From positions 224,001-288,000 of the forward strand of contig CBFIBM010000001.1 in assembly GCA_965660855.1 (NCBI GenBank): 64,000 nt of DNA, written 5' to 3'. The DNA comes from an uncultured bacterium (GTDB lineage: Bacteria; Fidelibacterota; Marinisomatia; Marinisomatales; UBA1611). The position numbers and the translations under genes were made by a program. Under the pieces are notes generated by a model that worked only from the letters and a program-made list of their open reading frames with translations, had not been told where the DNA came from and made no database searches. This document shows positions 24,548 through 49,403 of the stretch, one piece after another. Every line of letters begins with the position of its first letter. Position 1 is the stretch's first letter.

Positions 24548-24636
24548 GGAGGGGTGGCAGAGCCTGGCTGATTGCACTAGTCTTGAAAACTAGCAAGGGT
24601 TAATACCCTTCGGGGGTTCGAATCCCTCCCCCTCCG
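24548..24636 (+). tRNA. tRNA-Ser(TGA)
   Basis: GGAGGGG/CCCCTCC acceptor, anticodon arm CTAGT-CTTGAAA-ACTAG, long variable arm; CCA not encoded. Confidence 0.95.
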
Positions 24637-24858
24637 CACCTTATTTTAGATGTTTCTCCTTGACAAACTCTCTTTTACAGCATTTTTAATTTTTAAATAT
24701 TCTACGAGGATCTATGTTATTCGGGAACATTAAAGGAACATTAAGGGAACATTGTGACCCCCAACGCTTTTTAAAATTTGTTAAAGTTGGGAGTTTAAAT
24801 TTCAAGTAATGCTGTAAGACACATTGAATATTTATCTTAACTTGATTATTATTAATCT

Positions 24859-32701: not shown

Positions 32702-34021
32702 ATGATTGAATTCTTTAGAATATCAAGATTAATAATGTTTTTATTAATAGTGCGGTTTATCTCAGCTGCTGAGCCCTACGTAATCATTTACTTATTACCG
32801 TTTGATAATACTCAAAATGATCCTGCTTTAGAATGGATATCCCCAGGATTATCCGATATGACTAAGGAACAGATTAAAAGTATCTACGGAGTTAAAATAA
32901 AATCAAAAGAAGATTTAGAGATTATAATGAATGACAGATCTTTAATGTTGCAGCAGCCACGAGGATCAAGGAATTTACTTTTGTTGGGGAAATATAACCG
33001 AAAGCTTGATAAAGTTCATGTTACGATTCAACTTGTTGATGTAGCTAATTGGGAAGAGTTAGGAAAAACACACACTACTGAAGTATATACCAGAATACCT
33101 TCATTGAATAAAAGCGTTGGTGCATCAGTTATCCAAATGATAGAACCTTTTTTGCCCAAACCTCCAAAAACAAAAATATCTCCATTCCCAATGTATGCTA
33201 AGCCAGAATTACAAGATCAAAGAAATCCTGTGTCAACCCAAGCAGAAAAACTTGCTTCGGGCCTAGACAAACAGATAGCAGAACTAGAAGCTTCAATGGA
33301 TTATTTATTAGGTGCAAGAGAACGAAGAAAAGAAAAACCAAAAGTAGATGTTCCCAGGTTTAAATCAGGTGAATGGACAATGGATTTTGATGTTGATCGT
33401 AAGCTTAAGGACAATCCTGAAAATAATTCTAATACACAAATGCTAAGCAATGTATTAGATCAGTTGTTGACTAATCCTTATGAAGTTGAATTACAACGTC
33501 CAGAATTTGACTATCAGAAGGATGACGAATTGTACATGACAGTTAGGTTTCCTATAATATACAGGTTAAAGGATAAGATCTTAAAAGATATGTTATCTAG
33601 TCTGCCTTATACTGGGCTGCAACAAGATGGATCACTTACTGTTTTCTATTTTGACAGAACAAAGTTTAATTTTCCACAAAATCATGTGGAGTCAATAGCA
33701 AATGGTGATTTCAGAATTATCCCTGTTCTGAGGATTTTTGATGAAAATAGAAATACTTTAATCTTGGTGGCTGATACTCCAGAAAAATACTGGCATTCTA
33801 GGTCAAGCGATAAGGTTTATTACGTACCCCAACATCAATTTTCACCTCTTATTGATTTTACGGTTGGCGGTTGGTCTATTCAAGTTGCTATGGAGACTGT
33901 AGAAATTCAAGCCGTTTATGAATTTATATTACCTGTAAGTGAAATGGAATCCCTCAGTAATATTAGTTTGAAATTCATAAAAGAGAATGATTTAAGAGCT
34001 TTTCTTGATCCAATCCTTTGA
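32702..34021 (+). CDS. Secreted hypothetical protein (N-terminus resembles TolB_N/FlgO/CsgG-like fold)
   Basis: Signal peptide; LLPFDN...EWISPGLSDM pattern; coiled-coil-like segment. Confidence 0.5.
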   Translation: MIEFFRISRLIMFLLIVRFISAAEPYVIIYLLPFDNTQNDPALEWISPGLSDMTKEQIKSIYGVKIKSKEDLEIIMNDRSLMLQQPRGSRNLLLLGKYNRKLDKVHVTIQLVDVANWEELGKTHTTEVYTRIPSLNKSVGASVIQMIEPFLPKPPKTKISPFPMYAKPELQDQRNPVSTQAEKLASGLDKQIAELEASMDYLLGARERRKEKPKVDVPRFKSGEWTMDFDVDRKLKDNPENNSNTQMLSNVLDQLLTNPYEVELQRPEFDYQKDDELYMTVRFPIIYRLKDKILKDMLSSLPYTGLQQDGSLTVFYFDRTKFNFPQNHVESIANGDFRIIPVLRIFDENRNTLILVADTPEKYWHSRSSDKVYYVPQHQFSPLIDFTVGGWSIQVAMETVEIQAVYEFILPVSEMESLSNISLKFIKENDLRAFLDPIL

Positions 34022-34097: not shown

Positions 34098-35231
34098 ATG
34101 AAAATACTTTTGTTAATTTTATTGTTAATGTCAAAAATTCAAGGACAGAAACTAGATGCAATTGACATTAATTTAAGAAACCTTAATGATGTCTTAGAAA
34201 CTGCACAAAGATCTTCTCAAAAAGTATTTGTTGACGATTTTACAGGCCTTTTGTGACCATACTGTCCCTCTGCGAGTTTCGCAATTTCAGAAATGTTAGA
34301 TTTATATCCAGAAACTTTGATTAGTGTCGAGTGGCACAGCTCAGGTTTTACTCCAGGAAATTCAGATTTTGATATACCAGCATATTCTACCAGGGCAGCG
34401 TTGTACAATGTAGGAGGTATTCCTCATACTCAATGGAATGGCGTTGTTTCAACTGTTGGTGGGTATCCAAATGGTAACTGGCAAGCCTTTATTGGAGAAT
34501 TTACAAATACCTATAATAGTATGGTTGGAGAAGAAACTCCATACAATATTGACATAAACGGTTACGCGGGTAATACTGTGAATTACGATGTTACGATTTC
34601 AATGGATTCTGATATGAGTAGCTCAAACCAGAAAGTTGATGTCTTCCTTGCTGAAGATAATATATGGTCTTATTGGAGCGGCGCAAGTTCATATCATAAT
34701 GCAAGATTTGTAGCAAGGGAATGGCTTTCTTCGGAGTATCTGAGTATCAGCAGTGCCGGCCAGAGTGAAACTTTTTCTGGTTCATTTGAATACAATGGAA
34801 ATTGGAATAGTGATAGCCTTTTTTTAATTGCTATTGTTCAAAACTATTCATCAAAACAAATTTATCAAGCCTCAAAAGTTAATATAAATGATATGGATCC
34901 GGATATTGATGATGATGGTATTTTGAATAATACTGATAATTGTATTGAAGATTACAATCCTCAGCAAGAAGATATTGATAACGATCAAATAGGTGATGCT
35001 TGCGATCCATGTAATAATTTAATTTATACTCTAGGCAACCCAAATGGTGATACAAATATCAATGGAGATCCCCTCATTGACATCATGGATGTCTTAACCC
35101 TTGTAGATTATCTTGCATTTGATCAAAATGAAAATATTTGCCAGGAACCAACTCTAAATATAAATCAAGATAATCATGTTAATATCGTTGATGTAATAAA
35201 TCTTGTTCAACTGATTCTTAATGGTGCATAA
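34098..35231 (+). CDS. Putative selenoprotein: signal peptide + Omp28-like thioredoxin fold (U53-P-Y-C) + TSP3 + dockerin-like domain, 377 aa
   Basis: Open frame from ATG 34098 (AGGA RBS): MKILLLILLLMSKIQGQ...KVFVDDFTGLL-TGA(34254)-PYCP, continuing in frame into track ORF 34293; hairpin 34271-34283. Confidence 0.85.
34271..34283 (+). promoter_or_regulatory. SECIS-like hairpin 1
   Basis: TGCGA-GTT-TCGCA; G-initiated loop 19 nt after TGA. Confidence 0.6.
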
Positions 35232-35733
35232 TTTCTTAATAAAACCACTATTAAAATTTGTTTTTTTTAGTTCAGTTTTCTTTTCTTTTGCTCTTGCAAA
35301 AAAAGTTCCTGATTTAAATATTAAACTTATTGATGGATCAAAGACTACAATTCTAGAGCTTGCAGAAGATGGTCCATTATTAATTGATTTTTGGGCAACT
35401 TGGTGTGTTCCATGCAAAAAAGTGATGAAACATTTAAATCAATTTCATCTAAAATATGATGATCAAAATTTTAAGGTTTTAATGATTAATACAGATAGTC
35501 CTAGGTCTTTTGGAAAAGTAAAATCATTTATAAGATCTCAAGATTATAAATTTTATGTAGGGTTAGATCCTAACCAAATTACAGCCAGAAAACTTGATGG
35601 ATTAGTTATGCCTACTCTTATTTTAGTTGATGCAGGTGGGGAAATAACTTGGAGACATCAAGGTTACTCACCAGGTGATGAAAAAGAAATTGAAAATCAG
35701 ATTGAATTATTACTAAGTAAAAATACTAAATGA
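35221..35733 (+). CDS. TlpA-family thiol:disulfide oxidoreductase
   Basis: Signal peptide, DFWATWCVPC, cis-Pro MPT. Confidence 0.9.
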   Translation: MVHNFLIKPLLKFVFFSSVFFSFALAKKVPDLNIKLIDGSKTTILELAEDGPLLIDFWATWCVPCKKVMKHLNQFHLKYDDQNFKVLMINTDSPRSFGKVKSFIRSQDYKFYVGLDPNQITARKLDGLVMPTLILVDAGGEITWRHQGYSPGDEKEIENQIELLLSKNTK

Positions 35734-37682
35734 TATCAAAATTATTTAGGCTTAGTAAGCTTATTTTTCTTTTATGTTTTTTAACAGCTCAAGACTTTAG
35801 TTATAACGCCTCTATTAATTCAAGTTTTGGAAATAGTTATGATTTTTATTCTTTTTCAGAAAATAGGATAAACATCAACTTATTTTACAATAACTTTCAA
35901 AGTTGGGTTCAATATGAATATTCAAACCCACCCGACGTAGGTTTTCCAATTAATGATATAAGAAAATTTCGATTTGAATATCAAAATAAAGCTTTAAATA
36001 TTAAACTTGGCGACATTTATGAAATTTGGGGTAGGGGTTTAGTTCTTAATCAATTCGATGATCAACTTTTAGATTTTGACAATGGAATAAGAGGACTTTT
36101 TATAAATTATGGTAAAGGTCCGTTTAGTTTAACACACATAAATGGTAATGCAAATTTATGGAGTTACGGTCTTGATTTAAGAAAACCATATTATAATGAT
36201 AAGCATAATGTTATAGCAAACAGACTCCTTTATGAAAAAGGTTCCACAGTATTAGGCTTGACACATTTGATTTCTAGTGAAGAGCATTCCAAGTTAAATT
36301 TAGATGTAGTAGATGTGGGGCATACAATTAAGGGTATTTACGGTGATTATTCTTCTAATAATTTTGATATTTTTTTAGAATATGTAGATAAGGTCTCAAT
36401 CTCTAAAAATATAGTTTCAAATAATTTTCCAAATGATACCCTCAAAACAGGGTATGGTTTATATGGTAATTTGAATTTTTACTTAGGATCTTGGGGTCTA
36501 ACTACCGAGTATAAAAATTATTCTTTTGATTCGTTTATTAGTGATAAAACTCCAGATGATTATGGAAATCAAATTCAATTTCAACAAATGCCAACTTTAG
36601 GTAAGGAGCATAATTCAACGCTACTTGGTAGACTTAGCCATTATTATAATTTTAATGATGAAAGAGGTGTACAGTATGAGTTAAATGGATCATTTATAGG
36701 ACTGTCAATTAACCTTCAATATGCTCATTTAAGTAGGAATGAACAATGGTTTTCACAAAATGGCCCGTTTTCTTGGACAAATAAGATTTTGAGATCAAAA
36801 TTACCTAGTACAAAAATTAATACTAACCCATACTATGAAAACTTCCAAGAATTAAGTGGCTATCTGTTTGAAGATAAACTCTTTTTTAAGATTGGCAGGG
36901 GAGCAAATAAAGAAGTTTTAGGAACAAATTGGTTTTTTAATGGGGTTCAAACAGACACCTCTTATAGTTTGAGTTTTGCTTATGATACAACCTATTCGCC
37001 ATATGCTCCTGATTATCCAATAATTACGGTTGATAGCCTATATGACACATCTTCTGTTAGTTATAATATAAAAGCAGAGAATTGGAGAGAGAGTCAATCT
37101 TTTACGATTCCTGTTGAATTAAATTATACTATGTCAAGTGGATACTCCTTCGGAGTTGGTTTTCAGTACCAGGAGAGAACTTTAAATGAAAAAAGAAAAG
37201 GAAATTCTCATTCATATAATGTTGGAAATTCAAAATGGAATTTAGTTAATCCAGATGATTCAGACTATAAATCTACTTTAATTATATCTCAACTCTCTAT
37301 AAATGGTAAACCTAGGAAAATCCAACATAATCGTCTATTATCATTTACTTTAAGTAAAGCGCAGAAATGGTCAGTTACTATTACACAAGATTGGACTGAT
37401 GCATATGAGGTCCAATCATCTGATCCTTATTATAATCCATTAGAGGCAATAGTATATGGTGATTTAAAATATTTTACTGGGAAAAGAAATAATGTTTCTC
37501 CTCCTTCATTTATTCAAAATAAATGGGTTTCGGCAGAAGTATCATATAACATTAATTCATCTCAAAAAGTTTCAATTTTTTATGGATCTATTCAAGGTGG
37601 CTTATTCTGTAATAATGGAATATGCAGAATTATACCTGCATTCAATGATGGTATAAAAGTTGGCTATTATTTCAGTTTATAA
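35730..37682 (+). CDS. DUF6029-like outer-membrane beta-barrel
   Basis: GDIYEIWGRGLVL, DNGIRG, EYKNY, C-terminal GGLFCNNGICRIIPAF and terminal amphipathic strand. Confidence 0.7.
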   Translation: MISKLFRLSKLIFLLCFLTAQDFSYNASINSSFGNSYDFYSFSENRININLFYNNFQSWVQYEYSNPPDVGFPINDIRKFRFEYQNKALNIKLGDIYEIWGRGLVLNQFDDQLLDFDNGIRGLFINYGKGPFSLTHINGNANLWSYGLDLRKPYYNDKHNVIANRLLYEKGSTVLGLTHLISSEEHSKLNLDVVDVGHTIKGIYGDYSSNNFDIFLEYVDKVSISKNIVSNNFPNDTLKTGYGLYGNLNFYLGSWGLTTEYKNYSFDSFISDKTPDDYGNQIQFQQMPTLGKEHNSTLLGRLSHYYNFNDERGVQYELNGSFIGLSINLQYAHLSRNEQWFSQNGPFSWTNKILRSKLPSTKINTNPYYENFQELSGYLFEDKLFFKIGRGANKEVLGTNWFFNGVQTDTSYSLSFAYDTTYSPYAPDYPIITVDSLYDTSSVSYNIKAENWRESQSFTIPVELNYTMSSGYSFGVGFQYQERTLNEKRKGNSHSYNVGNSKWNLVNPDDSDYKSTLIISQLSINGKPRKIQHNRLLSFTLSKAQKWSVTITQDWTDAYEVQSSDPYYNPLEAIVYGDLKYFTGKRNNVSPPSFIQNKWVSAEVSYNINSSQKVSIFYGSIQGGLFCNNGICRIIPAFNDGIKVGYYFSL

Positions 37683-37760
37683 AACCATTAATTGTTTCTT
37701 TTTATTAATTATCTTTTGAATTTTTCAGTTCCAAAAGTATATCGTGATATTTAAAATTAT

Positions 37761-38645
37761 GTGAAGAATTATATCTTAAGCATTCCTTTAGCAAAATTAA
37801 TTTTTATTCTATCTATTATTTTATCAAATACTATTTATCCTCAAATAGATATAGGTTCAATATCTCCTAATTTCACTGCTCCTGTATGCGCAAACGGTGA
37901 TCTCGAGTTATTCAACTTGTACCAACAAACTAATGGCAGTTTTAATGGTGGTGATTATAAAGTAGTATGGATCAATTTATTTACTTCTTGGTGACCAAGT
38001 TGCCAAGTGGAGGCTCCACTATCAGAAGAAATATGGCAAGAATATTTAAGCGGAGGGGAAGAAAAATTAGTTGTTATGGCAGCTGGGTTTGATTGGCATC
38101 AGCCTTATAGCTGTGAAGAATGGTCAACTGCATTTGGTATAACATACCTAATGGTAGATGATACAAATAATGAAGCATGGAATATTTATGGTGATGGCTA
38201 TATTCCGCATAATGTAGTGTTAGATCATAACATGCAGGTTCTATATACAAGTTCAGGATTTAACTCAAATGAAATAAAAGATGCAATCGATCTCGGCCTA
38301 TCTTATGTTCCAAGAGATTTAGATTTAGATGGAATTAATGATAACATAGATAACTGTGATGATATTTATAATCCTAATCAAGAGGATGTTGATGTAGATG
38401 GCATCGGTGATTTATGTGATAATTGCGATAACTATAATGTATTTATTTCTGGAAATACTGATGGTGGTTTAGTAAATGGAATTCCCATTTTAGATATTTT
38501 TGATGTGTTGAACCTAGTTGATATTGTTTTATTGGATGAATCTGGTACCTGTAGATCTGATATCTCAGATTTGAATTCAGATAATAATATTAATATTATT
38601 GATGTGATATTTCTTGTACAGGGGTTGTTAAATGGTGAATTTTAA
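37761..38645 (+). CDS. Putative selenoprotein: signal peptide + AhpC/TSA-TlpA-like fold (U78-P-S-C) + TSP3 + dockerin-like domain, 294 aa
   Basis: Track ORFs 37761-37994 and 38007-38645 are in frame, joined as LFTSW-TGA(37992)-PSCQVEAP; aligns with Cys paralogue IFTSWCGFCQTEA. Confidence 0.88.
38000..38039 (+). promoter_or_regulatory. SECIS-like hairpin 2
   Basis: AGTGGA-GGC-TCCACT (38006-38020), loop 17 nt after TGA; lower stem TTGCCA/TGGCAA. Confidence 0.7.
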
Positions 38646-38757
38646 ATTCAAAAACTTAGTTAAGATTTAAACAATAAAAAATATTACAATTTAACATTCA
38701 TAAATGTTGATGTTTTTAAAGATTTAGATTAGAATTTATATATATATTTCTACATTC

Positions 38758-41700
38758 ATGAATATTTTTAAAAAAATGACCTTCTTCCTTCTGTTTTTTT
38801 CCTTAATTAAAGGTCAAGGTGATTATTCATTTAAAAATATTTCAGTAGAAGATGGACTTGCTGAAAGTACTGTAAAGATAATCTATGAGTCAAAACAAGG
38901 TTTTTTATTTTTTGGAACTGAAAATGGTCTTGATATTTTTGATGGTTATAAATTTAAAAACTATCATATGGATTCATTCGATAATGAATCAATTCTTGGA
39001 AATAAAGTTTCAGCTATTTACGAATCAAGTAATAATTTGATCTGGGTAGGAAGTGAGCTAGGATTTAGTTCATTTAATCCTTCAACACAAAAATTCAAAA
39101 GACCGTCATTAAGTAATAATAATATTACAAATCCAGAAAAAATTACAGAAGATGAAAGTGGGAAAATCTGGATTAAAGAGGCTCAATCTAGCCGTTTATT
39201 TAAATATGATTTTAATAAAGATATTCTTGAATGTATTTCATGTGATCAAATGAGCATCCTTTTTAATCAAACCATAAATATTCTACACAAATCGAATAAA
39301 GGTGCTTTGTGGATTGGTACTGATAAAGGTCTTTATTTTTATGATATTAATGATAAATCTATCAGGCCGATTGAATCAAAATATTCCTTAAGCATTAATG
39401 AGCCATATTATATTACATCAATTGAAAATGGATCAGATTCCATTTTATGGATAGGAACAAAACAAGGTCTTATCAAAATTGAAGAAAATAATAAGAGTCA
39501 AATTAAGATTTTTAAGAATTCGGAGGTTGAAAATTCTATCGTTTCTAACAAGATAAATGATATTAAATGGGATAATCTTAGGAATGAGTTATGGATTTCT
39601 ACTGTGGATGGAATTTCAAAATATTCACCTGAACTAAATTCTTTTTCTAACATTCAAGTAGGTCCGTTTGCTAATAGCATAATAGAAAATGATGTTACGG
39701 ATATTTTGATTGCTGAAAAGTCTGGAACTTTATGGTTTAAAACCAGAAACCGCTTTGGAATAAATAGTTTTAAAGCAACATTCAATGAATTTGAGGGGCC
39801 GGATACTTCAATTATGCATTTTGAACATGATCCTATTGATCCATTTTCTATTGCTGACAATGATATAACAAATTTTATTGAGGATAGAGCTGGCCACGTC
39901 TGGATAGGAACACGACAAAATGGGATAAGCTTTTATTCATTTTTGAAGCCTAAATTCTCATTGCTTGAATATGATCAAGAAAATGAATGGGGCCTCAAAA
40001 GTAATAAGATTTATTCAATTACAACCGATTCTTATGGTATGATGTGGGTTGCAACAGGGTTTGGATTAGAAAATATTTCTTCGGATGGTATTAGAGATTT
40101 TGAATTTGAAAAATCTTTTATTGAATCCAACCATGTCATGGATTTAGAGTTAGTAAATGATCAATATTTATGGGCGGCAACTGAAAATGGAATTCTTAGA
40201 ATTGATGTATTATCAGAAGAAATTATTCGATTTAACACCTCTCAAAATGTTAATAAAAAAAGATTAATTTCTGATAATTTTATTAGAGACCTGCTTATAA
40301 CAAAAAATGGTTCTATTTGGGCGGGGACAAAATCAGGAATTACAATAATAGATACAGTTGATTTAAGTGCTGTCAGTTTTAGCTCAGATTTTACTGCTAG
40401 GGTATTATACCAAGACGAAAGTGAAAATATATGGATAGGAACAGATTATAATGGATTATATCAAATACCATATGAAATTATTTCTGATCTAAAAAAAGAA
40501 GATATTTTTGAAGTAGAGGGTCATGTTTTTGACTCAGAGTTTTCTGATGGTCTATCATCTTCACAAATAACCTCTATAACTCAAGATACGACTGGTGTTT
40601 TATGGGTTGGTACAGCTAGTGGTTTAAATAAGTATATTGAAAGTGAAGATACCTTCTATCATTATTTCATGAAAGATGGTCTACCTAGTAACTATATTAC
40701 GGGTGTTATTGTAGATCAAAGTAATAACCTGTGGATAAGCTCTAAGAACGGTATTTCTTTCTTTAATCAGAAAGACTCTTCTTTTATAAATTATGGGGTT
40801 TCCGATGGAATAGGGAATATTGATTTTCATCAACATTCTTTTGAAAAAAGTATTGATGGAAACATATATTTTGGTGGGCCAAAAGGAATAACTAAAGTAA
40901 ATCCCTCAAATTTACAATATAATGAATACAAACCTCCTTGTTCAATTCTACGCATTAAAAAAACACTTTATGATGGATCTATTACTGAAGTTTTTCCTCA
41001 AAAAAGTTCGAAACTAGAAATTCAAAAGATTAATATAAATCATAAAGTAAAATCATTCTCAATCGATTTTGTTGCTCTGAATTATCATAAAACTATAAAG
41101 AATGAATATAGATATAAACTTCAACCTTTTGATAGGAATTGGGTAGAATCGGGGAATATTAAATTTGCATCTTACAATAATTTAGGTAGAGGAGAGTATA
41201 CCTTTTTTGTGCAAGGATCTAACGATGATGGATTATGGAGTCAGTCTGCTGTTTTAGATTTTAAATTTATTCCTCATCCTCTTTTAAGTTATGGTGCTTT
41301 TGGAGTCTATCTTGCACTAATTATATTTGGTGTATACTGGCTAGTTAAACAAAGAATATTAAAACAGCAATCTGAGGCTGATGAAAAGAGAAGAGCCGAA
41401 GAATTAGAGCAAGCTCGGGAATTCCAGATGTCACTAATACCTCAAAATCCTCCTTCTATCAGCGGATTTGAATTTGCTTTGCATATGAAAACATCTACGG
41501 AGGTTGGTGGTGATTATTATGATTTTTTTCCTCAAAAAAATAATGTTCTTTATGTAGTTTGTGGTGACGCCACTGGGCACGGTTTAAATGCTGGTATGAT
41601 GGTTTCAATTACAAAAGCAGGATTATTCGGATCAGACTTTAGTAATCCAGGTATTACAACTACTAGGTTAAATCAAACAATAAAAGCTATTGATCTTGGA

Positions 41701-42105
41701 ACAACAAGGATGTCTTTGAATATGGCTAAGTTTGAAAATGAATCCTTTGAGTTTACATCAGCTGGTATGCCTCCTGCATATTTATTTCGTGGTGAAACAA
41801 AGGTTGTAGAGGAAATTTTAATTCCTGGTTTGCCTCTGGGGTCTATGAAAAATGCTACATTTGATTCTGAGATATTTGAATTTAAAATAGATGATGCGTT
41901 AATCTTAATTTCAGATGGACTTCCTGAATGTGTTGACCATAAAGATGAAATGTTAGATTATGATGCAGTAAAGAACTGTATTGAAAAAAATGGGCATAAA
42001 TCAGCAAATGGCATTAAAGATGCCTTGATAAAATTGGGTGATGACTGGATGGACGGTCTAATGAATGATGATGATATAACATTGGTAATTATAAAGAGGA
42101 AATAG
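38758..42105 (+). CDS. Membrane sensor phosphatase: two-component-regulator beta-propellers + Y_Y_Y + TM + SpoIIE/PP2C domain
   Basis: Repeated DxxGxLWIGT, YRYKL...ASYNNL..GEYTF, TM, EVGGDYYDF, GDATGHG, SDGLPE, DDITLV. Confidence 0.88.
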   Translation: MNIFKKMTFFLLFFSLIKGQGDYSFKNISVEDGLAESTVKIIYESKQGFLFFGTENGLDIFDGYKFKNYHMDSFDNESILGNKVSAIYESSNNLIWVGSELGFSSFNPSTQKFKRPSLSNNNITNPEKITEDESGKIWIKEAQSSRLFKYDFNKDILECISCDQMSILFNQTINILHKSNKGALWIGTDKGLYFYDINDKSIRPIESKYSLSINEPYYITSIENGSDSILWIGTKQGLIKIEENNKSQIKIFKNSEVENSIVSNKINDIKWDNLRNELWISTVDGISKYSPELNSFSNIQVGPFANSIIENDVTDILIAEKSGTLWFKTRNRFGINSFKATFNEFEGPDTSIMHFEHDPIDPFSIADNDITNFIEDRAGHVWIGTRQNGISFYSFLKPKFSLLEYDQENEWGLKSNKIYSITTDSYGMMWVATGFGLENISSDGIRDFEFEKSFIESNHVMDLELVNDQYLWAATENGILRIDVLSEEIIRFNTSQNVNKKRLISDNFIRDLLITKNGSIWAGTKSGITIIDTVDLSAVSFSSDFTARVLYQDESENIWIGTDYNGLYQIPYEIISDLKKEDIFEVEGHVFDSEFSDGLSSSQITSITQDTTGVLWVGTASGLNKYIESEDTFYHYFMKDGLPSNYITGVIVDQSNNLWISSKNGISFFNQKDSSFINYGVSDGIGNIDFHQHSFEKSIDGNIYFGGPKGITKVNPSNLQYNEYKPPCSILRIKKTLYDGSITEVFPQKSSKLEIQKININHKVKSFSIDFVALNYHKTIKNEYRYKLQPFDRNWVESGNIKFASYNNLGRGEYTFFVQGSNDDGLWSQSAVLDFKFIPHPLLSYGAFGVYLALIIFGVYWLVKQRILKQQSEADEKRRAEELEQAREFQMSLIPQNPPSISGFEFALHMKTSTEVGGDYYDFFPQKNNVLYVVCGDATGHGLNAGMMVSITKAGLFGSDFSNPGITTTRLNQTIKAIDLGTTRMSLNMAKFENESFEFTSAGMPPAYLFRGETKVVEEILIPGLPLGSMKNATFDSEIFEFKIDDALILISDGLPECVDHKDEMLDYDAVKNCIEKNGHKSANGIKDALIKLGDDWMDGLMNDDDITLVIIKRK

Positions 42106-42116
42106 GTTAAACTCTC

Positions 42117-42683
42117 ATGATAAAAAATACAATTAGAATAATCTATTTGCTTATGTTTCTTTCACTTGGATATTCTCAAGAAAAAATACCAAACTTGAGA
42201 CTTAAAATGTTGAATGGAAAATATGCAAAAGTAAATGATTTTTTAAAAGATGGACCAATGATTATAGATTTTTGGGCTACTTGGTGTGAGCCATGTAAGA
42301 AACAGATGAAATATCTTAATATATTTAATAATCATTTTAAGGAAACTGGATTTAAAGTACTTGCTGTTAACACTGATACACCTAAAAGTATGAGTAAGGT
42401 TAAATCTTATGTCAGAACAAAAAAGTTTGAGTTTGACGTTGCAGTGGACCCGAATAGTCAGGTTAAAAAGAAAATGAAGGTTTTGCAAATGCCTACAACT
42501 ATTTTAGTTGATAAAACTGGACAAATAGTTTTTAGACATCAAGGATATTTACCTGGCGATGAACATGATATTCTTCAAGCTATTTATGGTTTAATGGATA
42601 AAAACAATACTAGTTATGAAAAACTTGATTTGAATAAGAACAATAAAAAACAAATTAAATCCGGTGCTGAAGTTGATTTTTAA
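42117..42683 (+). CDS. TlpA-family thiol:disulfide oxidoreductase (paralogue of 35221)
   Basis: DGPMIIDFWATWCEPC, MPT, RHQGY. Confidence 0.9.
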   Translation: MIKNTIRIIYLLMFLSLGYSQEKIPNLRLKMLNGKYAKVNDFLKDGPMIIDFWATWCEPCKKQMKYLNIFNNHFKETGFKVLAVNTDTPKSMSKVKSYVRTKKFEFDVAVDPNSQVKKKMKVLQMPTTILVDKTGQIVFRHQGYLPGDEHDILQAIYGLMDKNNTSYEKLDLNKNNKKQIKSGAEVDF

Positions 42684-44946
42684 TAAGCAAATAATTGTAT
42701 CATTCATATTGATACTTAGTAATTCAGATTTATTTTCCCAAATAACAGCTGGTGGGAACTCTATTCTAAAATTTGGCGAGAGTAAAAATGAATTTCACTA
42801 TTCAGAGGTTTTGCTGAATATGAACTTATCAAATGATTATTTGGAGACTTGGTTTCAATTCGAATACAGCAAACCACCTGAGATTGGGATGAGTATTAAT
42901 GGTCTGAGAAAATTTAGGATTGACTATTCTGATGGCCCTTTCGAATTATCTGTTGGAGATATATATAAAATTTGGGGGAGGGGGTTAATATTGAACCAGT
43001 TTGATGATCAGGATGTAAATCTTGATAATGGTTATAGAGGATTAAGTTTCAGTATAATAAAAGATAACTATACCATTGATTTAATATCTGGAATTTCAAA
43101 TATACATAGAATTAGTCAAGATTACTGGCAAAATATAGATCAAGAATCAAGAAAGCCAAATCATTTATCAAAACATTCTATGTTTGGTAGTGATTTAGAG
43201 TTTTTTCAAGGACCTTTTTCTCTAGGTTTATCCTTTCTTCAAAGTAGAGAGAATCATCCCATCAATAATCCGATCACGATGATGGCAGATAGTATTAATG
43301 TAATTCATCGAATAAATGGTTTAAGAGCCGGATATGAAGGCGGGCGTCTCGCCTCCTACTTAGAATTATCTGGAAAAAATACGCTATTATCTCAATCCGA
43401 AAGTCAAATATATAAGGAAAATTTTAATCCTTATAATGGCTTCAGTCTTTTTGGAAATATTAATTATTATTTTCAAAGTCAGCTTCTAGACGGATGGTCA
43501 TTAACAATGGAGTATAAAAACTACAATACAACAAAATTAAATACATCAGATAAAGACAATTTTGTTAAAAATTATGATATGAATTTAATTTTTACTCAAC
43601 CCCCGACTGTTTTAAGGGAACATAGCAGTGTATTTTTAGCTAGACTTATTCCTCAGGTAAATTTCAGCGATGAAGTAGGTTATCAATTTTCTCTTGTTGG
43701 TCCTATTATGGGGATAGGGTATTTTACTCTCAACTATCAAGCCGCAAGTAGAACAAACTTATGGGGTAAAACATACCCAGATACTGTAAATGCTATATTA
43801 TCTACTAAATGGGAAAGTGATAGTGCAGTTACCGTATTGCCATTCAGTGAAAAATCCGGACTGCCATACAATGAACTTTATCTTGAAATGGAAGGTTACA
43901 TAAAAAATATTAGGTATCAATTTGGCTTTGGTATCACAAACAAAATACCTGAATATCATTCGTCGTATAATAGTGGAAAGAATGGTGTCTGGGATAATGG
44001 TGAAGCGTTTGATGATTTAAATGGCAATAATATTTATGATATTGGAGAAAATTTTACTGATCTTTACAGTATAGTAAATGAAAAAATTGATAATAAAACT
44101 GTTACAGCCATTACAATACCTTCTCTTCTAAATTATAATTTAGGAAATGGGTGGAGTATTGATTTAAAATATGAATTTCAAAAGATTAAAAGTGGTACAA
44201 AATATTATAATTCATTGTCCTCTGATGAAGTATTCTATGATAGTAATGGAAATGGTGTTTGGGATATTGCAGAGTTATTTGAAGATAGTAATGGTGATGG
44301 TATTTGGAACCAAGCTGAAGAGACATGGTATGATTTATGGCAAAGTGGTTTAATACCCGATGAACAATTATACTACTATGATACTGACGGCGATGGTTTA
44401 TTTTCGGAGGGAGAATATTTTACTGATGCTGATGGAAATGGCATGTGGAATTCATCAGAAAACTTAATTGATGAAGATGGTGATGGAATATGGGATGATT
44501 CAGAGTATTTGGAGGATCTAAATAATGATGGAGTCTGGACAAAAAGTGGAGTGTATGAAGATAGGTATCAATCTAATTTTTATTCAAATGATTCAAAAAG
44601 TGGGTTGAGTATTCCTGAAGATTTTCAAAATAATCATCTGATATCACTCGGAATAGGAAAATCGCCTTATTGGTCACTATCTTTAACGGTTGAATCAAGT
44701 TCAACCTATGAATATGGTCCATTAAAAAATAGTGTTGTTAATCCTCTAGAGAGTTTCTTAGGTAATATTATTGATTTAAATAATAAGTGGATTGCTTTAG
44801 AATTTATGGTGAATATAAATTCAAATACTAGGCTCGATTTAATGTACGGTACGCAAAGGGGAGGGATTATTTGCAGTAATGGAATTTGTAGGTATGTTGA
44901 ACCTTTCGATGATGGATTTAAATTAGCGTTATCAACAGTATTTTAA
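42664..44946 (+). CDS. DUF6029-like outer-membrane barrel with inserted Ca-binding-like DxNGDGxWD repeats
   Basis: GDIYKIWGRGLILNQFDDQ, C-terminal QRGGIICSNGICRYVEPF...TVF. Confidence 0.7.
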   Translation: MLKLIFNKQIIVSFILILSNSDLFSQITAGGNSILKFGESKNEFHYSEVLLNMNLSNDYLETWFQFEYSKPPEIGMSINGLRKFRIDYSDGPFELSVGDIYKIWGRGLILNQFDDQDVNLDNGYRGLSFSIIKDNYTIDLISGISNIHRISQDYWQNIDQESRKPNHLSKHSMFGSDLEFFQGPFSLGLSFLQSRENHPINNPITMMADSINVIHRINGLRAGYEGGRLASYLELSGKNTLLSQSESQIYKENFNPYNGFSLFGNINYYFQSQLLDGWSLTMEYKNYNTTKLNTSDKDNFVKNYDMNLIFTQPPTVLREHSSVFLARLIPQVNFSDEVGYQFSLVGPIMGIGYFTLNYQAASRTNLWGKTYPDTVNAILSTKWESDSAVTVLPFSEKSGLPYNELYLEMEGYIKNIRYQFGFGITNKIPEYHSSYNSGKNGVWDNGEAFDDLNGNNIYDIGENFTDLYSIVNEKIDNKTVTAITIPSLLNYNLGNGWSIDLKYEFQKIKSGTKYYNSLSSDEVFYDSNGNGVWDIAELFEDSNGDGIWNQAEETWYDLWQSGLIPDEQLYYYDTDGDGLFSEGEYFTDADGNGMWNSSENLIDEDGDGIWDDSEYLEDLNNDGVWTKSGVYEDRYQSNFYSNDSKSGLSIPEDFQNNHLISLGIGKSPYWSLSLTVESSSTYEYGPLKNSVVNPLESFLGNIIDLNNKWIALEFMVNINSNTRLDLMYGTQRGGIICSNGICRYVEPFDDGFKLALSTVF

Positions 44947-45015
44947 TCTAGCTTTTAATGAAAAATATCAATAAATTGAAAATAATTACATAACTTCAAT
45001 TAAAACAAAACTTAC

Positions 45016-45909
45016 ATGAAAAAATTCATTTTAAAGTTTTTTATTTTATTTTCTATAACATTTCCCTCATTTGTTATATGTCAGGGTCAAATTATACAAG
45101 ATTTTTCCTACCCAATTTGTGCTAATGGTGATGGTGAAACAGTTTTAAATTTTTATGAATCATTCAACGGATCAGTAAACAATTGTGAGTATAAAGTAGT
45201 TCTTGCTACACTTTTCACCTCCTGGTGACCATCCTGTATGACGGAGGCTCCGGTTCTAGAAGAAATATTTAACACCTACAAAGATCAAGGATTAGAAGTT
45301 GTTGCATTTGGAGCCGACTGGTATCCTGATGGACCCTATACTTGTGAAGGGTGGGATCAACAATTTAATCTTTCTTACCCAATACTTGATTTTGAGACAG
45401 GATTAGAAAATTGGTATTGGGAGTCAGCTCCGTATGATTTATACCAGCCCGAGTTAGGTTGGGGGTTACCTTTTAATGTAATAATAAATCATGAGATGGA
45501 AGTTTTATGGGGTGCAGCAGCCAACTTTGAGGGTGATGTAATGGCTGAGGCTATAGGTGTTATTGAATCAGCTCTCCAAGCGTTGAATGAAGAATTTCCC
45601 GATGGTCCAGGGGATGATGATGGAGATGGAATAGCAAATGGTTGTGATCCTTGTCCAGAATCTCATTTACACCATCCTGGAAATTTTGATTTTTCTCAGG
45701 TTTATTCACATTTTGATAATGGTGCAGTCTTTGTACCATCTGTAGATATTTTTGATTTAATACTATTTTCAGATTATATAATGGATGGTGGCTACCTAAC
45801 TGATTGTATCTTAGAGGCGCACGATATTACCGGGGATGGTTATGTCAATCCTTTCGATGTTATAGCATTAGCTCAATTAATTCTTGGAAATGATTGGGGT
45901 TTAAATTAG
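45016..45909 (+). CDS. Putative selenoprotein: signal peptide + AhpC/TSA-TlpA-like fold (U71-P-S-C) + TSP3-like + dockerin-like domain, 297 aa
   Basis: Track ORFs 45016-45228 and 45238-45909 are in frame, joined as LFTSW-TGA(45226)-PSCMTEAP. Confidence 0.88.
45242..45252 (+). promoter_or_regulatory. SECIS-like hairpin 3
   Basis: CGGA-GGC-TCCG, loop 17 nt after TGA; same GGAGGCTCC core as hairpin 2. Confidence 0.65.
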
Positions 45910-45931
45910 CCTGATTATTTTCTTCTTATAA

Positions 45932-46855
45932 ATGAAATTATTTTATCATATTTTTCAGAAGAGTATTATTATTTTTGTTTTAATTTATACTTCTACCACT
46001 TCAGAAATGCAAGGTCAGGTAGCTGTAGGTGACACTATAAACCCTTCTCAATTAAGTTTACCAATTTGCGCTAATCAAGAACCCTTTGGCCCTTCAGAGC
46101 AATTTTTTGATATTTCGATTTATAATAACCCAGATCAAGATTCACAATCAAAAGTAATTTTACTTTCTATTTTTACATCATGGTGCGGATTTTGTCAAAC
46201 TGAAGCTACACACTTACAAGATTTACATACTGAATTTGCCGATGATGGATTGTTAGTTGTTTCAGCTGGAGGAGATTGGGGTTTTCCATATGATTGTGAG
46301 GGTTGGTCTAATGAATTTGATTTAAGTTATCCAATATTAGATTTTATGAATCCCTTTAATCCTAATTGGGGAGAAGCGCCATTAATGACCTATTTAGGAG
46401 TAGCTGCAATACCCTTTAATGTAATTATAGATCATAGGAACATAGTCTCAAATATTATAATAGGATATAATGAGGAAATATTGAACCTAGCTATTGAAGA
46501 TGCTCTTGAAGCAATGATTCAAGATAGTGATGGTGATGGAATTAATTCTGAAGCAGATAACTGTCCATCAATATTCAACCCAGGTCAATCTGATTTTGAC
46601 GGTGATGGCATAGGAGATGTCTGCGATGCTTGTGATAATCTTAATATATTTGTTAACGGAAATCTTAATGGTACATTAAATCTTGATCAAGAACCAACCA
46701 TTGATATTCTAGACTTATTGTTACTGGCCGACTTCCTTGAGGGATTACCAGATCAAAATATCTGTCATGAGGCTGCCTCTGATATTAATGAGGATTCTAA
46801 TATAAATTTACTTGATGTATTTTCACTTGCCTATCAAATTACTGGGCAAAATTAA
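45932..46855 (+). CDS. Secreted thioredoxin-fold protein (CGFC) + TSP3 + dockerin-like; Cys paralogue
   Basis: IFTSWCGFC; DSDGDGINSEADNC; IDILDLL and DINEDSNINLLDV. Confidence 0.85.
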   Translation: MKLFYHIFQKSIIIFVLIYTSTTSEMQGQVAVGDTINPSQLSLPICANQEPFGPSEQFFDISIYNNPDQDSQSKVILLSIFTSWCGFCQTEATHLQDLHTEFADDGLLVVSAGGDWGFPYDCEGWSNEFDLSYPILDFMNPFNPNWGEAPLMTYLGVAAIPFNVIIDHRNIVSNIIIGYNEEILNLAIEDALEAMIQDSDGDGINSEADNCPSIFNPGQSDFDGDGIGDVCDACDNLNIFVNGNLNGTLNLDQEPTIDILDLLLLADFLEGLPDQNICHEAASDINEDSNINLLDVFSLAYQITGQN

Positions 46856-47001
46856 AATAGGATAAAGGCCTTGAGCAAAGTTATACTTTTATCGTTGGTT
46901 ATTTATTATCAAATTTTGAACCTATATAAAAAGGTATCTATTTTGTATAATCAGGTTCTATTTACAAAATTTTAACAAAAATTATTTTAAAAAGATCAGT
47001 T

Positions 47002-47916
47002 TTGTTAAAAAAAAATTTTAAAAAAATAAATTACCTCAAAGTATTTACAATACTTTTATTGCAATCATTATTATATAGTCAAATTGCAATTGGTGATACT
47101 GTCTTTAATCTGCAATTACCAATATGTGCTAATTCTGATCCTGATATTCACGAACAGCAATATTTTGATATAAATGATTATAATGGTTTTCCCGAAAGTA
47201 CTATCAGCCCAAGGGTAATTCTTCTTGCAATCTTTACTTCATGGTGTGCGTATTGTCAAACTGAAGCGTTCCTTTTAGAAGATTTACATGAGGAGTATAT
47301 TGATGATGGATTATTGGTCCTTTCTGCTGGTGGTGATTGGGGCTTCCCATATGATTGTAGTGGTTGGGCAAATTCATTTAATTTAACTCATCCAATATTA
47401 AATTTTATGACAACTAATGTGGAAAGTTGGGAAGATGCTCAATTGATAAACTATTTGGGAGTTGGTATTGTACCACATGCTGTTGTAATTGATCATCGAA
47501 ATATTCTTTCAAACACCATTGTGGGTTATAATCCTAATGCTTTGAATCAAGCTGTTGAAAGTGCGCTTGAAACAATGGCTCAAGACCTTGATGGTGATGG
47601 AGTTTTATTTGATGATGATAATTGTCCTTCAATTCATAACCCAGAACAAATAGATATTGACAATGATAACCTTGGTGATGAATGTGATTTATGTGATAAT
47701 CTTAATAATTTTGTAATTGGCAATCTAAATGGTACACTAGATCAATTTCAGCAAGCAACCATTGATATTTTTGATTTATTGTTATTAACTGATTTTTTAG
47801 ATAATTCTTACGAGAATAATGTATGCTCTAACGCTGTATCCGATATTAATGGTGATAATTCTATAGATCTAATTGACGTATTTACGCTTGCTTATATTAT
47901 TTCAGAACAAAATTAA
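47002..47916 (+). CDS. Secreted thioredoxin-fold protein (CAYC) + TSP3 + dockerin-like; Cys paralogue
   Basis: IFTSWCAYC; DLDGDGVLFDDDNC; DINGDNSIDLIDV; close paralogue of 45932. Confidence 0.85.
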   Translation: MLKKNFKKINYLKVFTILLLQSLLYSQIAIGDTVFNLQLPICANSDPDIHEQQYFDINDYNGFPESTISPRVILLAIFTSWCAYCQTEAFLLEDLHEEYIDDGLLVLSAGGDWGFPYDCSGWANSFNLTHPILNFMTTNVESWEDAQLINYLGVGIVPHAVVIDHRNILSNTIVGYNPNALNQAVESALETMAQDLDGDGVLFDDDNCPSIHNPEQIDIDNDNLGDECDLCDNLNNFVIGNLNGTLDQFQQATIDIFDLLLLTDFLDNSYENNVCSNAVSDINGDNSIDLIDVFTLAYIISEQN

Positions 47917-47974: not shown

Positions 47975-48048
47975 GCGCCCGTAGCTCAACTGGATAGAGT
48001 GTCTGGCTACGGACCAGAAGGTTGGGGGTTCGAATCCTCCCGGGCGTA
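47975..48048 (+). tRNA. tRNA-Arg(ACG)
   Basis: GCGCCCG/CGGGCGT acceptor, anticodon arm TCTGG-CTACGGA-CCAGA, GTTCGAATC; CCA not encoded. Confidence 0.95.
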
Positions 48049-48056
48049 CTGACGAC

Positions 48057-48566: not shown

Positions 48567-49403
48567 TTGAAGATCACACGGTGCGGTGTGTCTTATATGG
48601 AGTTCAACATGTCGAAAAGAATGAATAGTTCTATTCTTATTCGTGCAGTTCAAATTATAATTTGGACTAGCCTATTTCTACTTATTTTAACCCCCACATC
48701 CCTAATATATGGTCAGGATGCTGAAGATGATGTTGAAGAATATTTTGGAGATGATGATGAATATTTAGATGATGAAGAATACCTTGATGATGAAGAATAC
48801 CTTGATGATGATGAATATGACGATGAATATGACGATGAAGAATATGATGATGAAGAATATGACGATGAAGAATATGAGGATGAAGAATATGAGGATGAAA
48901 TTCTTGAGGATAGTGCTGAAAATTTAGGTTACACAATTGACCTCGCTCTCGGTTCACCGCGATTCACAAATAGAGTACTCATGGATTGGACTTCTGCAGT
49001 CGACCTTCGGGCAAGTGTAGAGTTTCCAATTTTAATGCAATTGCTTGGTGCAAATTTTAGATTTGGTGCTGAAGTTGGTTCTTTCAAGTTTGAGAATGCT
49101 ATTCCTAAAGAAGAGGCAGATGGAAGCCTCCTTCAATTAGGTGAGACAATAAGTGGCATTACTGCTATGGGTATTGTTTCGTTTCCAGCAGGACCGGGAA
49201 AAATTAAATTTGGTGCTGGTCTTGTAGGCTCTTCTCCAGGTTTTTCCATGGAAGCTTCATACGGTATACGCATAGGTGAAATGGTAGAGATAAGAGGTGG
49301 GATTAGATCTACAGAAGCATTAAATACGAAAACTTCTGAATCCAATGAACTTGGTAGGGCGGGTTGGATGGATGGACAAATTGTTTTAGGTGTAAACCTT
49401 TAA
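48567..49403 (+). CDS. Secreted/outer-membrane protein with acidic DDEEY repeat and small beta-barrel-like C-domain
   Basis: Signal-like segment ending LIYG|Q, acidic repeat, alternating Gly/hydrophobic strands ending LGVNL; true start probably later (48597-48621). Confidence 0.6.
   Translation: MKITRCGVSYMEFNMSKRMNSSILIRAVQIIIWTSLFLLILTPTSLIYGQDAEDDVEEYFGDDDEYLDDEEYLDDEEYLDDDEYDDEYDDEEYDDEEYDDEEYEDEEYEDEILEDSAENLGYTIDLALGSPRFTNRVLMDWTSAVDLRASVEFPILMQLLGANFRFGAEVGSFKFENAIPKEEADGSLLQLGETISGITAMGIVSFPAGPGKIKFGAGLVGSSPGFSMEASYGIRIGEMVEIRGGIRSTEALNTKTSESNELGRAGWMDGQIVLGVNL
48750..48899 (+). repeat. Coding tandem repeat D-D-E-E-Y(-L), 12-18 nt units
   Basis: gatgatgaagaata[t/c] units read directly. 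Confidence 0.85.

Follow-up and report, generated by a model that had tools for sequence, protein, structure and literature searches.

The window, a stretch of 64,000 nucleotides from a marine SAR406 (Marinimicrobia) genome of 84% completeness, carries ten genes, g1 to g10, all on the forward strand between positions 34098 and 47916. The list of open reading frames and their translations shows this same-strand cluster as it was first noted in a sequence-only reading of the DNA. It contains two tandem copies of a cassette, in each of which a TlpA-like reductase is accompanied by a DUF6029 outer-membrane barrel of 24 strands and by one or more exported Trx-fold oxidoreductases; signal peptides were called from N-terminal hydrophobic stretches alone. 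In the first copy, g1 (34098..35231) encodes an Omp28-related selenoprotein of the GOS_C family with the site U-P-Y-C and a TSP3 plus dockerin-like tail. It is followed by g2 (35221..35733), a TlpA/ResA-like periplasmic thiol:disulfide oxidoreductase (WCVPC) that overlaps the start of g3 (35730..37682), the barrel of about 24 strands, and by g4 (37761..38645), an exported ResA-like Trx-fold selenoprotein with the site W-U-P-S-C and a TSP3 plus dockerin-like tail. The second copy comprises g6 (42117..42683), another TlpA-like reductase (WCEPC) with a C-terminal ...IDF/VDF tail that is kept in relatives; g7 (42664..44946), a second DUF6029 barrel, extended by a long insertion in which DxDGDG-type repeats can be read; g8 (45016..45909), a Trx-fold selenoprotein (W-U-P-S-C); and the Cys-type paralogues g9 (45932..46855; WCGFC) and g10 (47002..47916; WCAYC), which bear the same TSP3 plus dockerin-like tail as g1 and g4. 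The copies are separated by g5 (38758..42105), a membrane-spanning sensor that combines a SpoIIE/PP2C phosphatase with Reg_prop beta-propellers and Y_Y_Y, of which Pfam recognised Reg_prop, Y_Y_Y and SpoIIE; its position between the cassettes is the same in relatives.

The unit is wider than first described. The exported protein p439 (32702..34021, forward strand) precedes the first cassette copy and has to be added, as probably does p278 (48567..49403, forward strand), a small protein resembling an outer-membrane barrel, its N-terminal region acidic and rich in D/E/Y, and often the last of the cluster in relatives; both travel with the cluster there. Across Marinimicrobia, the order p439, TlpA, DUF6029 barrel, exported Trx-fold protein is conserved. 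In 71 of 78 related loci the gene immediately before the barrel is TlpA, which bears out the synteny on which the sequence-only reading depended, p439 lies upstream in 60/78, and a Trx-type or Omp28-type gene lies downstream of the barrel in 53/78 (44 with U, 4 with C); these counts are not independent, the related genomes being kin and the two locus sets overlapping. The genes almost certainly constitute a conserved functional cassette. Contigs from RNA libraries (four runs, four studies) extend over the cluster and run across two in-frame TGA codons, that of g8 included; RNA libraries can contain DNA, and the expression of the cluster is weakly indicated.

Standard ORF calling splits g1, g4 and g8, as had been anticipated, each at an in-frame TGA that occupies the first Cys position of a CxxC motif: 34254..34256 in g1 (L-U-P-Y-C), 37992..37994 in g4 (W-U-P-S-C) and 45226..45228 in g8 (W-U-P-S-C). 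This splitting favours the reading of the TGAs as real stops, with the genes split or pseudogenes; a variant of it holds that TGA is read generally as an amino acid. General recoding is contradicted because many genes of the window, g2 and g3 included, end normally under table 11. Real stops are contradicted by the homologues, in which TGA recurs at the same active-site column and the rest carry Cys: among 28 aligned Trx-type homologues the column holds 25 TGA versus 3 Cys codons, and in the regions of 20 relatives it holds TGA in 17/17 g1-type orthologues. Exactly one TGA is present in each of the 28 best-scoring g4 matches in relatives. The g9 orthologues in relatives carry Sec, while g9 itself has Cys. 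Selection downstream of the TGA does not appear relaxed; differences at the first, second and third codon positions after it (59/39/109, 82/52/166 and 88/64/113) are most numerous at the third and fit coding sequence.

The Sec machinery and the hairpins also stand against the TGAs being real stops. All four components looked for were found in the host genome: selA (494.2 bits) adjoining selB (303.4 bits), selD (388.9 bits, itself with one TGA) and tRNA-Sec (63.3 bits; anticodon tca by ARAGORN). A SECIS-like hairpin with compensatory changes follows each TGA, at 34271..34283 in g1 (5-bp stem, loop GUU), at 38006..38020 in g4 (beginning 11 nt past the TGA, loop GGC) and at 45240..45254 in g8, where the hairpin analysis was the same as for g4; all three are on the forward strand. 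In the Trx-type hairpin 88.3% of cells are paired, compared with 24-47% when the partner is slid, and the covariation of 0.309, against 0.115 in shuffles, was reached by 0 of 500 shuffles. Pair 17-27 alternates between CG (16), UA (6) and GC (2), and pair 16-28 is unpaired in 10/27 sequences. In the Omp28-type hairpin of g1, four pairs are always paired and one pair covaries (18-30; CG 10, UA 5, UG 1), and two outer pairs that were tried are unpaired in 14/16 sequences. In g9 and g10, no such hairpin was found behind the Cys codon. Taken together, the three TGAs are virtually certain, by these sequence criteria, to encode selenocysteine, and the reading as stops or as a general recoding has a negligible probability and is all but refuted. 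As far as sequence can show, true selenoproteins make up three (g1, g4 and g8) of the five exported oxidoreductases, and in their UxxC it is Sec that attacks.

The sequence-only reading knew of no description of the system, and this holds for the cassette as a system and not for its selenoproteins, as both families were catalogued in 2008 (PMC2398784). Dataset S2 of Zhang and Gladyshev (2008, PMC2398784) contains sequences of the g1 family (...DFTGLxUPYCPSASFA...) as 'Hypothetical protein GOS_C', with a description limited to 'Trx-like fold, UxxC', without function or gene context. The family is represented by a curated model in NCBIfam, NF045500, 'Omp28-related selenoprotein', of which g1 is a member (562.6 bits, cut-off 200; positions 4-377 of 377); what differs is the context, g1 being part of a conserved cassette of TlpA and barrel. 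In its Dataset S1 the same work files homologues of g4 and g8 (...LFTSWUPSCQVEAP..., with TSP3/dockerin tail) as '#Prx-like 1', and NCBIfam holds no model specific for their family. That filing, together with Redoxin or AhpC-TSA matches near the Pfam cut-off in g4, g8, g9 and g10 (21-31 bits), is in favour of an oxidant defence, in which the exported Sec proteins would remove external peroxides in the manner of peroxidases and be reduced again by TlpA, with no redox role for the barrel. We consider this quite improbable. Although the name implies a peroxiredoxin, the motif W-U/C-x-x-C is that of ResA and TlpA, and in sequence the g4 type comes closest, among solved proteins, to thiol:disulfide oxidoreductases (ResA, StoA and the DsbE type) and not to peroxiredoxins; moreover, the proposal leaves the invariant Cys pair of the barrel and the docking of TlpA on it (see below) unexplained. 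Sec is often found in place of Cys in peroxide-reducing enzymes, which is a further point on the side of oxidant defence.

The tails of the exported proteins bear on where they act. TSP3-like plus dockerin-like tails had been claimed for all five; the tails do align with each other, that of g8 being the most divergent, while the Pfam matches stay under the cut-off (TSP_3 16-22 bits, cut-off 25; Dockerin_1 16.5-17.6 bits, cut-off 22.9). Against the PDB, g1 (E 1.8e-10) and g4 (E 7.3e-15) match thrombospondin-2 in its type-3 repeats. The surface display and Ca anchoring proposed in the sequence-only reading are putative. In the host genome, the full TSP3 plus dockerin tail is found only on six Trx-fold genes. 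A T9SS sorting domain was found by Pfam and NCBIfam in 0/5 exported proteins of the window, and by a crude motif the CTD is missing in 39/49 Omp28-type relatives as well. The absence of this domain supports a redox set confined to the periplasm, in which CTD-less Trx-fold proteins would stay and be reduced by TlpA, while the barrel would be a channel for a substrate (organic disulfide, polysulfide or a selenium compound are candidates) with TlpA as gate or first acceptor at its periplasmic mouth. On the other hand, 28/42 of the Trx-type orthologues in relatives carry the T9SS sorting domain (Pfam Por_Secre_tail), a finding new to this work, T9SS cargo is present in the host genome, and the exported proteins have extra invariant cysteines, C43 and C118, which, like disulfide-rich TSP3 repeats, are commoner in proteins outside the cell. 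Confinement to the periplasm is rather unlikely.

The TlpA-like proteins are placed by Pfam with Redoxin (g2, 70.9 bits) and AhpC-TSA (g6, 85.2 bits), and the best solved relative of the TlpA-family profile is PDB 2m72 (E 3.1e-30); the NCBIfam equivalog cut-offs are not reached (ResA 66.8 versus 170; TlpA 56.5 versus 230). Sec-containing paralogues of g6 occur elsewhere on the contig. The host genome encodes a full DsbD with N-domain, TM domain and Trx domain, and the cassette resembles the DsbD/CcdA to TlpA/ResA/CcmG pathways, with which g2 and g6 share family and WCxPC motif. Known TlpA-type proteins serve periplasmic clients, e.g., cytochrome c and Cu centres. Here, unlike in those pathways, an outer-membrane barrel is the translationally coupled neighbour of TlpA and its predicted docking site.

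Both barrels match DUF6029 well above the cut-off of 27 (g3 87.3 bits, g7 75 bits) and, as had been claimed, end in CxNGIC (...FCNNGIC... in g3, CSNGIC in g7). The motif CxxGxC is present in 57/57 complete Marinimicrobia barrels and in 99/102 long representatives. In the AF2 model of g3 (pLDDT 87.8, pTM 0.84), which has no plug of its own, the cysteines of this hairpin (C627-N-N-G-I-C632; 37608..37625, forward strand) sit on either side of the two-residue turn that joins strands 624-628 and 631-635. By strand order the hairpin is predicted on the outer side of the barrel, which again argues against confinement to the periplasm; the Cys pair could also be a purely structural disulfide. In fold, g3 is matched best by FimD (Z 18.0) and PapC (Z 16.9), usher pores that are likewise 24-strand barrels wide enough for a folded domain. 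The usher lumen holds a folded plug, whereas g3 lacks the usher plug and the N- and C-terminal domains, and with 9-10% identity it is not a member.

A controlled prediction of the barrel-TlpA complex, which is new here, supports the physical link envisaged by the sequence-only reading. For g2 with g3, ipSAE values of 0.75, 0.73 and 0.73 were obtained against 0.01 for the best control; the pass mark is reached by 116/157 solved complexes and 2/215 mismatched pairs. Contacts agree between the runs to at least 85%, and the pLDDT of the partner is at least 84. TlpA is placed against or inside the barrel at its periplasmic end, touching nearly all periplasmic turns, a pose which would also suit the confinement to the periplasm. 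The predicted interface includes W61-C62-V63 and V129 of TlpA and, on the barrel, the N- and C-termini, the inter-strand turns, the invariant Y97, G101, R102 and G103, and also N629. The 25 predicted residue pairs listed do not include C62 beside either C627 or C632, and residues conserved at 90% or more are not significantly enriched at the interface (10/65 versus 56/565 other barrel residues, Fisher p 0.20). The likeness of g3 to usher pores, in which a folded plug occupies the lumen, also speaks for docking. On these models, a stable TlpA-barrel complex is reasonably probable.

The barrel and p439 can also be seen as a device for export or anchoring, in which a ring of p439, as PelC under PelB, and the DUF6029 barrel would move or hold the dockerin-tailed proteins, with TlpA as a plug that can be withdrawn or as a holdase by which Sec and Cys stay reduced in passage. 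The N-terminal domain of p439 is PelC/TolB-N/CsgG/LpoB-like and is followed by a linker and a beta-rich C-terminal domain; p439 has no Pfam or NCBIfam match, but its AF2 model (pLDDT 78.8) finds PelC by Foldseek (E 1.7e-5, TMt 0.5), TolB-N too, and it sits in a FlgO/CsgG/LpoB-like cluster of the Atlas. The closeness of the barrel to usher translocation pores, the restriction of the full tail to the six Trx-fold genes and an HHpred link of DUF6029 to Wzi-like export barrels, given in PMC9603273, point the same way. However, no lipobox is found in the sequence of p439, unlike in PelC, and the barrel persists in cassettes whose cargo has its own T9SS signal. A role in export or anchoring is unlikely.

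We tentatively prefer a thiol relay. Reducing power from the cytoplasm would pass through the full-length DsbD to TlpA, which would be docked at the periplasmic mouth of the plug-less barrel or within its lumen, the CxxC face of TlpA turned to barrel loops and close to the invariant CxxGxC hairpin; from there, reducing equivalents would pass on to the Sec/Cys oxidoreductases exported to the outer membrane or past it, and these would act on an oxidised substrate. The explanation as a whole, two tandem envelope thiol-redox cassettes with a relay from DsbD through TlpA and the barrel to the exported oxidoreductases, is largely inferred and falls a little short of an even chance; the relay across the outer membrane is plausible, though still rather doubtful. 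The cassette is, in any case, a conserved, unstudied system by which reducing power may cross the outer membrane. In mode it would be similar to the MtrCAB porin-cytochrome conduits (PDB 6r2q), in which a periplasmic redox protein in a large barrel feeds a redox protein outside, and MtrB is among the fold matches of g3 (Z 14.1). Here there are no hemes, and the would-be carriers are Cys/Sec pairs; homology is not claimed.

Neighbourhoods of TlpA, DUF6029 and Omp28 occur in Bacteroidota, with Cys. They follow the same three-part logic, g1 being distantly Omp28-like, but the third partner here differs in having Sec and a TSP3/dockerin tail or, in relatives, a T9SS domain.

The ten same-strand genes listed between 34098 and 47916 in the sequence-only reading were recovered as such; the region is split under translation table 11 and becomes whole when TGA is read through. 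The row consists of an Omp28-related gene (g1, 34098-35231, motif L-U-P-Y-C), two TlpA/ResA-like genes (g2 and g6), two genes for DUF6029 barrels (g3 and g7), a Reg_prop/Y_Y_Y/SpoIIE sensor (g5) and four Trx-fold genes, of which g4 (37761-38645, start codon GTG) and g8 (45016-45909) carry W-U-P-S-C while g9 and g10 carry W-C-x-x-C at the matching position. A tRNA-Arg (acg) at 47975-48049, directly after g10, marks the end of the row. To the extent that sequence analysis can establish it, the TGAs of g1, g4 and g8 encode selenocysteine and the three are real selenoprotein genes. The decoding machinery predicted with them is complete in the genome (2.09 Mb in 81 contigs, 84% complete), where adjoining selA (494.2 bits) and selB (303.4 bits), selD (388.9 bits) and tRNA-Sec (63.3 bits; called by ARAGORN as tRNA-SeC with anticodon tca) all score above curated cut-offs. 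The selD gene (contig C19, 7427-8353) itself holds one in-frame TGA, so selenophosphate synthetase probably belongs to the selenoproteins as well. Sub-threshold tRNA-Sec matches inside the window are due to two tRNA-Ser genes at 20243-20331 and 24548-24637. Scanning the window for in-frame TGA candidates returned g1, g8 and one antisense chance match at 49135; g4 was missed because the scan requires an upstream M and this gene starts with GTG.

Conservation of the TGA, which the earlier reading had made a condition of its proposal, was borne out in related genomes. With g4 as query, 59 of 61 such genomes gave a match, many spanning the tail only, and each of the 28 best-scoring matches holds exactly one TGA. 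Across 20 fetched regions, the 28 Trx-type genes have TGA (25) or a Cys codon, TGT/TGC (3), at the active site, and the 17 Omp28-type genes all have TGA there. Differences from orthologues past the TGA fall mostly at third codon positions (59/39/109, 82/52/166 and 88/64/113), which answers the concern that selection might be relaxed downstream. Bacterial SECIS elements follow a spacing rule and a loop-G rule. Hairpins starting 11-14 nt past the TGA were found; they show compensatory changes, and their loops, only 3 nt long, contain a G. Part of these rules is given in the legend of Figure 7 of PMC2398784. The Trx-type hairpin has its stem 11 nt after the TGA and the loop GGC, with 88.3% of cells paired vs 24-47% for shifted partner columns, and its covariation of 0.309 vs 0.115 in shuffles was reached by none of 500 shuffles; pair 17-27 occurs as CG (16), UA (6) and GC (2), and 10 of 27 sequences leave pair 16-28 open. 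For the Omp28-type hairpin, a 5-bp stem with the loop GUU has 75.0% of cells paired and one covarying pair (CG 10, UA 5, UG 1), and two further outer pairs that were tried fail to form in 14 of 16 sequences. Neither g9 and g10, the Cys paralogues, nor the three Cys orthologues have the GAGGCUCC core.

Contigs of four RNA libraries from four studies cover the cluster and span the TGAs of g1 and g8, which is weak evidence because such libraries can contain DNA; the four metatranscriptome runs speak for the presence of the cluster, neither proving transcription nor ranking the genes. RNA-library contigs differ from the window by 3- and 12-nt insertions in an acidic D/E/Y repeat near 48750-48880, within the gene p278 (48567-49403) that follows g10 and whose product looks like a small outer-membrane barrel. 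The summed library depth is highest in the bin of p278 and may include other organisms.

The selenoprotein families of the window are not new; both have been catalogued since 2008. The product of g1 scores 562.6 bits (cut-off 200) over residues 6-375 of 377 against NCBIfam NF045500, 'Omp28-related selenoprotein', with the motif UPYC. It stays below the cut-offs of the Omp28 models proper (PF11551, 27.3 vs 34.9 bits; NF033782, 44.9 vs 150), phmmer against the PDB, with E values up to 1 admitted, returned no Omp28 structure, and its signal region lacks the Cys of a lipoprotein signal; by sequence, g1 is a distant Omp28 relative only. In the available part of Zhang & Gladyshev 2008 (PMC2398784), its family goes under 'Hypothetical protein GOS_C' and comprises 74 Sec sequences of Trx-like fold without a known function. 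There, g4-like sequences, tail included, are filed under 'Prx-like 1', as is a g6-type TlpA in its Sec form. The available part of Peng et al. 2016 (PMC5029168) has SAR406 genomes only among organisms with an orphan SelD, and our literature search found no paper combining Omp28 with a selenoprotein. Two adjoining paralogues of the g6 type, with Sec at the active site, lie outside the window on the minus strand of its contig (C1:178995-180736) and read FWTTWUPNC and FWTTWUTYC, both with the conserved ...IDF tail.

Peroxiredoxins are defined by a peroxidatic Cys in a T/S-x-x-C context. The Trx-type proteins were rejected as peroxiredoxins proper, their motif being W-U/C-x-x-C and their nearest solved sequences ResA, StoA and DsbE. 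Peroxide defence, one of the main rival explanations for the role of the cluster, is a poor fit to this ResA-like motif and to these nearest solved relatives.

What is new is the cassette around the selenoproteins, which is undescribed as a system. It comprises an exported protein (p439, encoded at 32702-34021 before g1, with a PelC/TolB-N/CsgG-like N-terminal domain), the TlpA-like reductase, the DUF6029 outer-membrane barrel and an exported Trx-fold protein. In g2 and g6 a Redoxin/AhpC-TSA fold was found above cut-off (Redoxin 70.9 bits for g2, AhpC-TSA 85.2 bits for g6) along with the WCxxC motif, the export signal being read from the protein sequence; the NCBIfam equivalog models for ResA and TlpA were not reached. 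The barrels g3 and g7 match DUF6029 (PF19494) with 87.3 and 75 bits (gathering cut-off 27) and end in ...FCNNGIC... and ...CSNGIC..., respectively. Unlike g3, g7 (42664-44946) has a long insertion at roughly residues 440-640, made up of seemingly calcium-binding repeats of the type D-x-D/N-G-D/N-G-x-W/F-D.

With the barrel profile, 78 loci were collected, all from Marinimicrobia/Neomarinimicrobiota/Fidelibacterota records, so that the synteny counts apply within the phylum; this set overlaps with the 20 fetched regions because some contigs are common to both, and the genomes are kin. The TlpA/barrel synteny put forward earlier holds in 71 of the 78 loci, where TlpA is the immediate upstream neighbour of the barrel, the remaining upstream neighbours being an Omp28-type gene in 4 and a contig edge in 3. 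Downstream, the neighbour is of Trx or Omp28 type in 53 loci (44 with U, 4 with C) and was not found in 22. Cys forms are thus also seen at barrel loci (two of the Omp28 type and two of the Trx type), as in g9 and g10, and p439 is present in 60 of the 78. The recurring order in the window's family is GlnRS-p439-[Omp28U]-TlpA-barrel-[Omp28U x n]-TrxU-PP2C-TlpA-barrel-TrxU...-p278. CxxGxC occurs in all 57 complete Marinimicrobia barrels and, of the best 149 of 1458 library representatives, in 99 of the 102 that are long proteins, and a homologous-protein search with g3 returned only near Marinimicrobia relatives. Conservation of a cassette of four to five parts is carried by these counts as far as gene comparison can carry it. 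The only paper found to discuss DUF6029 (PMC9603273) links it, in its available part, by HHpred to Wzi-like export barrels, and the literature on PorA/Omp28/T9SS and TlpA/PG2175 yielded nothing on the cassette.

The AF2 model of g3 (pLDDT 87.8, pTM 0.84) is a barrel of ~24 strands with no plug. Immediately ahead of the last strand, C627 and C632 lie on either side of the two-residue turn that joins strands 624-628 and 631-635. By VIA-align, the fold of the barrel comes closest to two usher pores of 24 strands, FimD (Z 18.0; 361 residues aligned at rmsd 4.4) and PapC (Z 16.9), with MtrB at Z 14.1; Foldseek against the PDB gave generic large barrels only (TM about 0.4). Complex prediction with barrel residues 21-650 (49-row alignment) and g2 residues 27-170 (38 rows) was scored as 'supports binding', with ipSAE of 0.75, 0.73 and 0.73 vs 0.01 for the best control. 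In the calibration, 116 of 157 solved complexes pass the mark, as do 2 of 215 mismatched pairs; these counts are only rough here because our own alignments were used. The runs have at least 85% of contacts in common, with a partner pLDDT of at least 84. The ~140 predicted contacts involve, on the barrel side, the N- and C-termini, the turns of nearly all strand pairs, residues 288-295, N629 and the invariant Y97/G101/R102/G103 loop and, on the TlpA side, W61-C62-V63, K67 and V129, that is, the catalytic face. The model would place TlpA inside the periplasmic half of the barrel lumen. The residue pairs listed for the model do not include C62 beside C627 or C632. Mean conservation is higher at the interface than elsewhere (0.60 vs 0.45 for the barrel, 0.70 vs 0.62 for TlpA), and residues at or above 90% conservation are not significantly enriched there (p 0.20). 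To our knowledge there is no solved complex of the TlpA-in-barrel kind, so a score owed to memorised structures seems unlikely. A TlpA-barrel complex is thus predicted, with controls.

We tentatively propose, at rather less than even confidence, that the cassette works as a thiol/selenol equivalent of porin-cytochrome conduits. The separately encoded TlpA would sit as a plug inside the 24-strand outer-membrane barrel and would hand reducing equivalents, via the invariant CxxGxC hairpin, to Sec oxidoreductases outside the cell. Only the architecture would be alike, as the multiheme cytochrome in the barrel belongs to those conduits and not to the cluster, in whose genes Pfam and NCBIfam profiles found no heme-binding families. 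We infer the substrate, the direction in which electrons flow, their transit via the Cys hairpin and, for this organism, display at the surface. If true, it would mean disulfide-reducing power at the cell surface for FCB-group bacteria. We know of no route for thiol-based reducing power across the bacterial outer membrane, and the cassette, with its reductase predicted in a plug-less barrel with an invariant Cys pair, is a concrete, testable candidate for one. It would also supply a function for DUF6029 and for two selenoprotein families listed in 2008 and still lacking a role. In the dark ocean, SAR406/Marinimicrobia are an abundant group, and their exported selenoproteins are concentrated at this locus; since standard annotation splits the three Sec genes, the system is invisible in most genome records.

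The tails of the exported proteins, read earlier as TSP3-like plus dockerin-like, are softer calls than implied. The TSP3 part is upheld by PDB matches of g1 (E 1.8e-10) and g4 (E 7.3e-15) to the type-3 repeats of thrombospondin-2, with Ca-binding D-x-D-x-D-G and paired Cys, despite Pfam TSP_3 staying below its cut-off; for the dockerin-like part, Dockerin_1 scores 16.5-17.6 bits vs a cut-off of 22.9 for type I dockerin. The full tail is limited to six genes in the genome, the window's five and a paralogue on the plus strand of the same contig (C1:123923-124756), ~100 kb from the cluster, which has an in-frame TGA and reads FATWUGGCQAEAP. Por_Secre_tail of Pfam was found in 28 of 46 aligned Trx-type proteins (28 of 42 relatives and none of the four window copies), so the Trx family is surface-directed in many relatives; in the long ones the order is Trx(U)-TSP3-dockerin-like-extra domain-T9SS tail, and by a crude motif 10 of 49 Omp28-type relatives also have a T9SS tail. 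The window's exported copies end at the dockerin-like module, and profile search found the T9SS type A sorting domain in none of the five. A periplasm-only system, with the barrel as a substrate channel, and export or anchoring of the tailed proteins by the barrel, with p439 as a PelC-like ring, are the other main rivals to the proposed surface route.

T9SS is in use in this genome, TIGR04183 being reached with 35.3 bits (cut-off 23) both in a 4247-residue protein after the cluster and in a 1281-residue ORF on another contig (C2:65734-69576). The latter holds the sole cohesin match of the genome, a weak one (22-25 bits vs 24.1), and is possibly a surface partner for the dockerin-tailed proteins that have no sorting domain of their own. 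As the source of electrons for the proposed route, DsbD is plausible, a full-length copy (N-domain, TM domain, Trx domain) being present in the genome. The ORF on C2 ends with a dockerin-like module, the cohesin-like domain and the sorting domain, in the C-terminal order of the relatives' long Trx(U) orthologues. The 4247-residue protein (49414-62157) comes directly after the cluster; it is a surface protein rich in repeats, its sorting domain is of T9SS type A, and in several relatives a related gene also follows the cluster.
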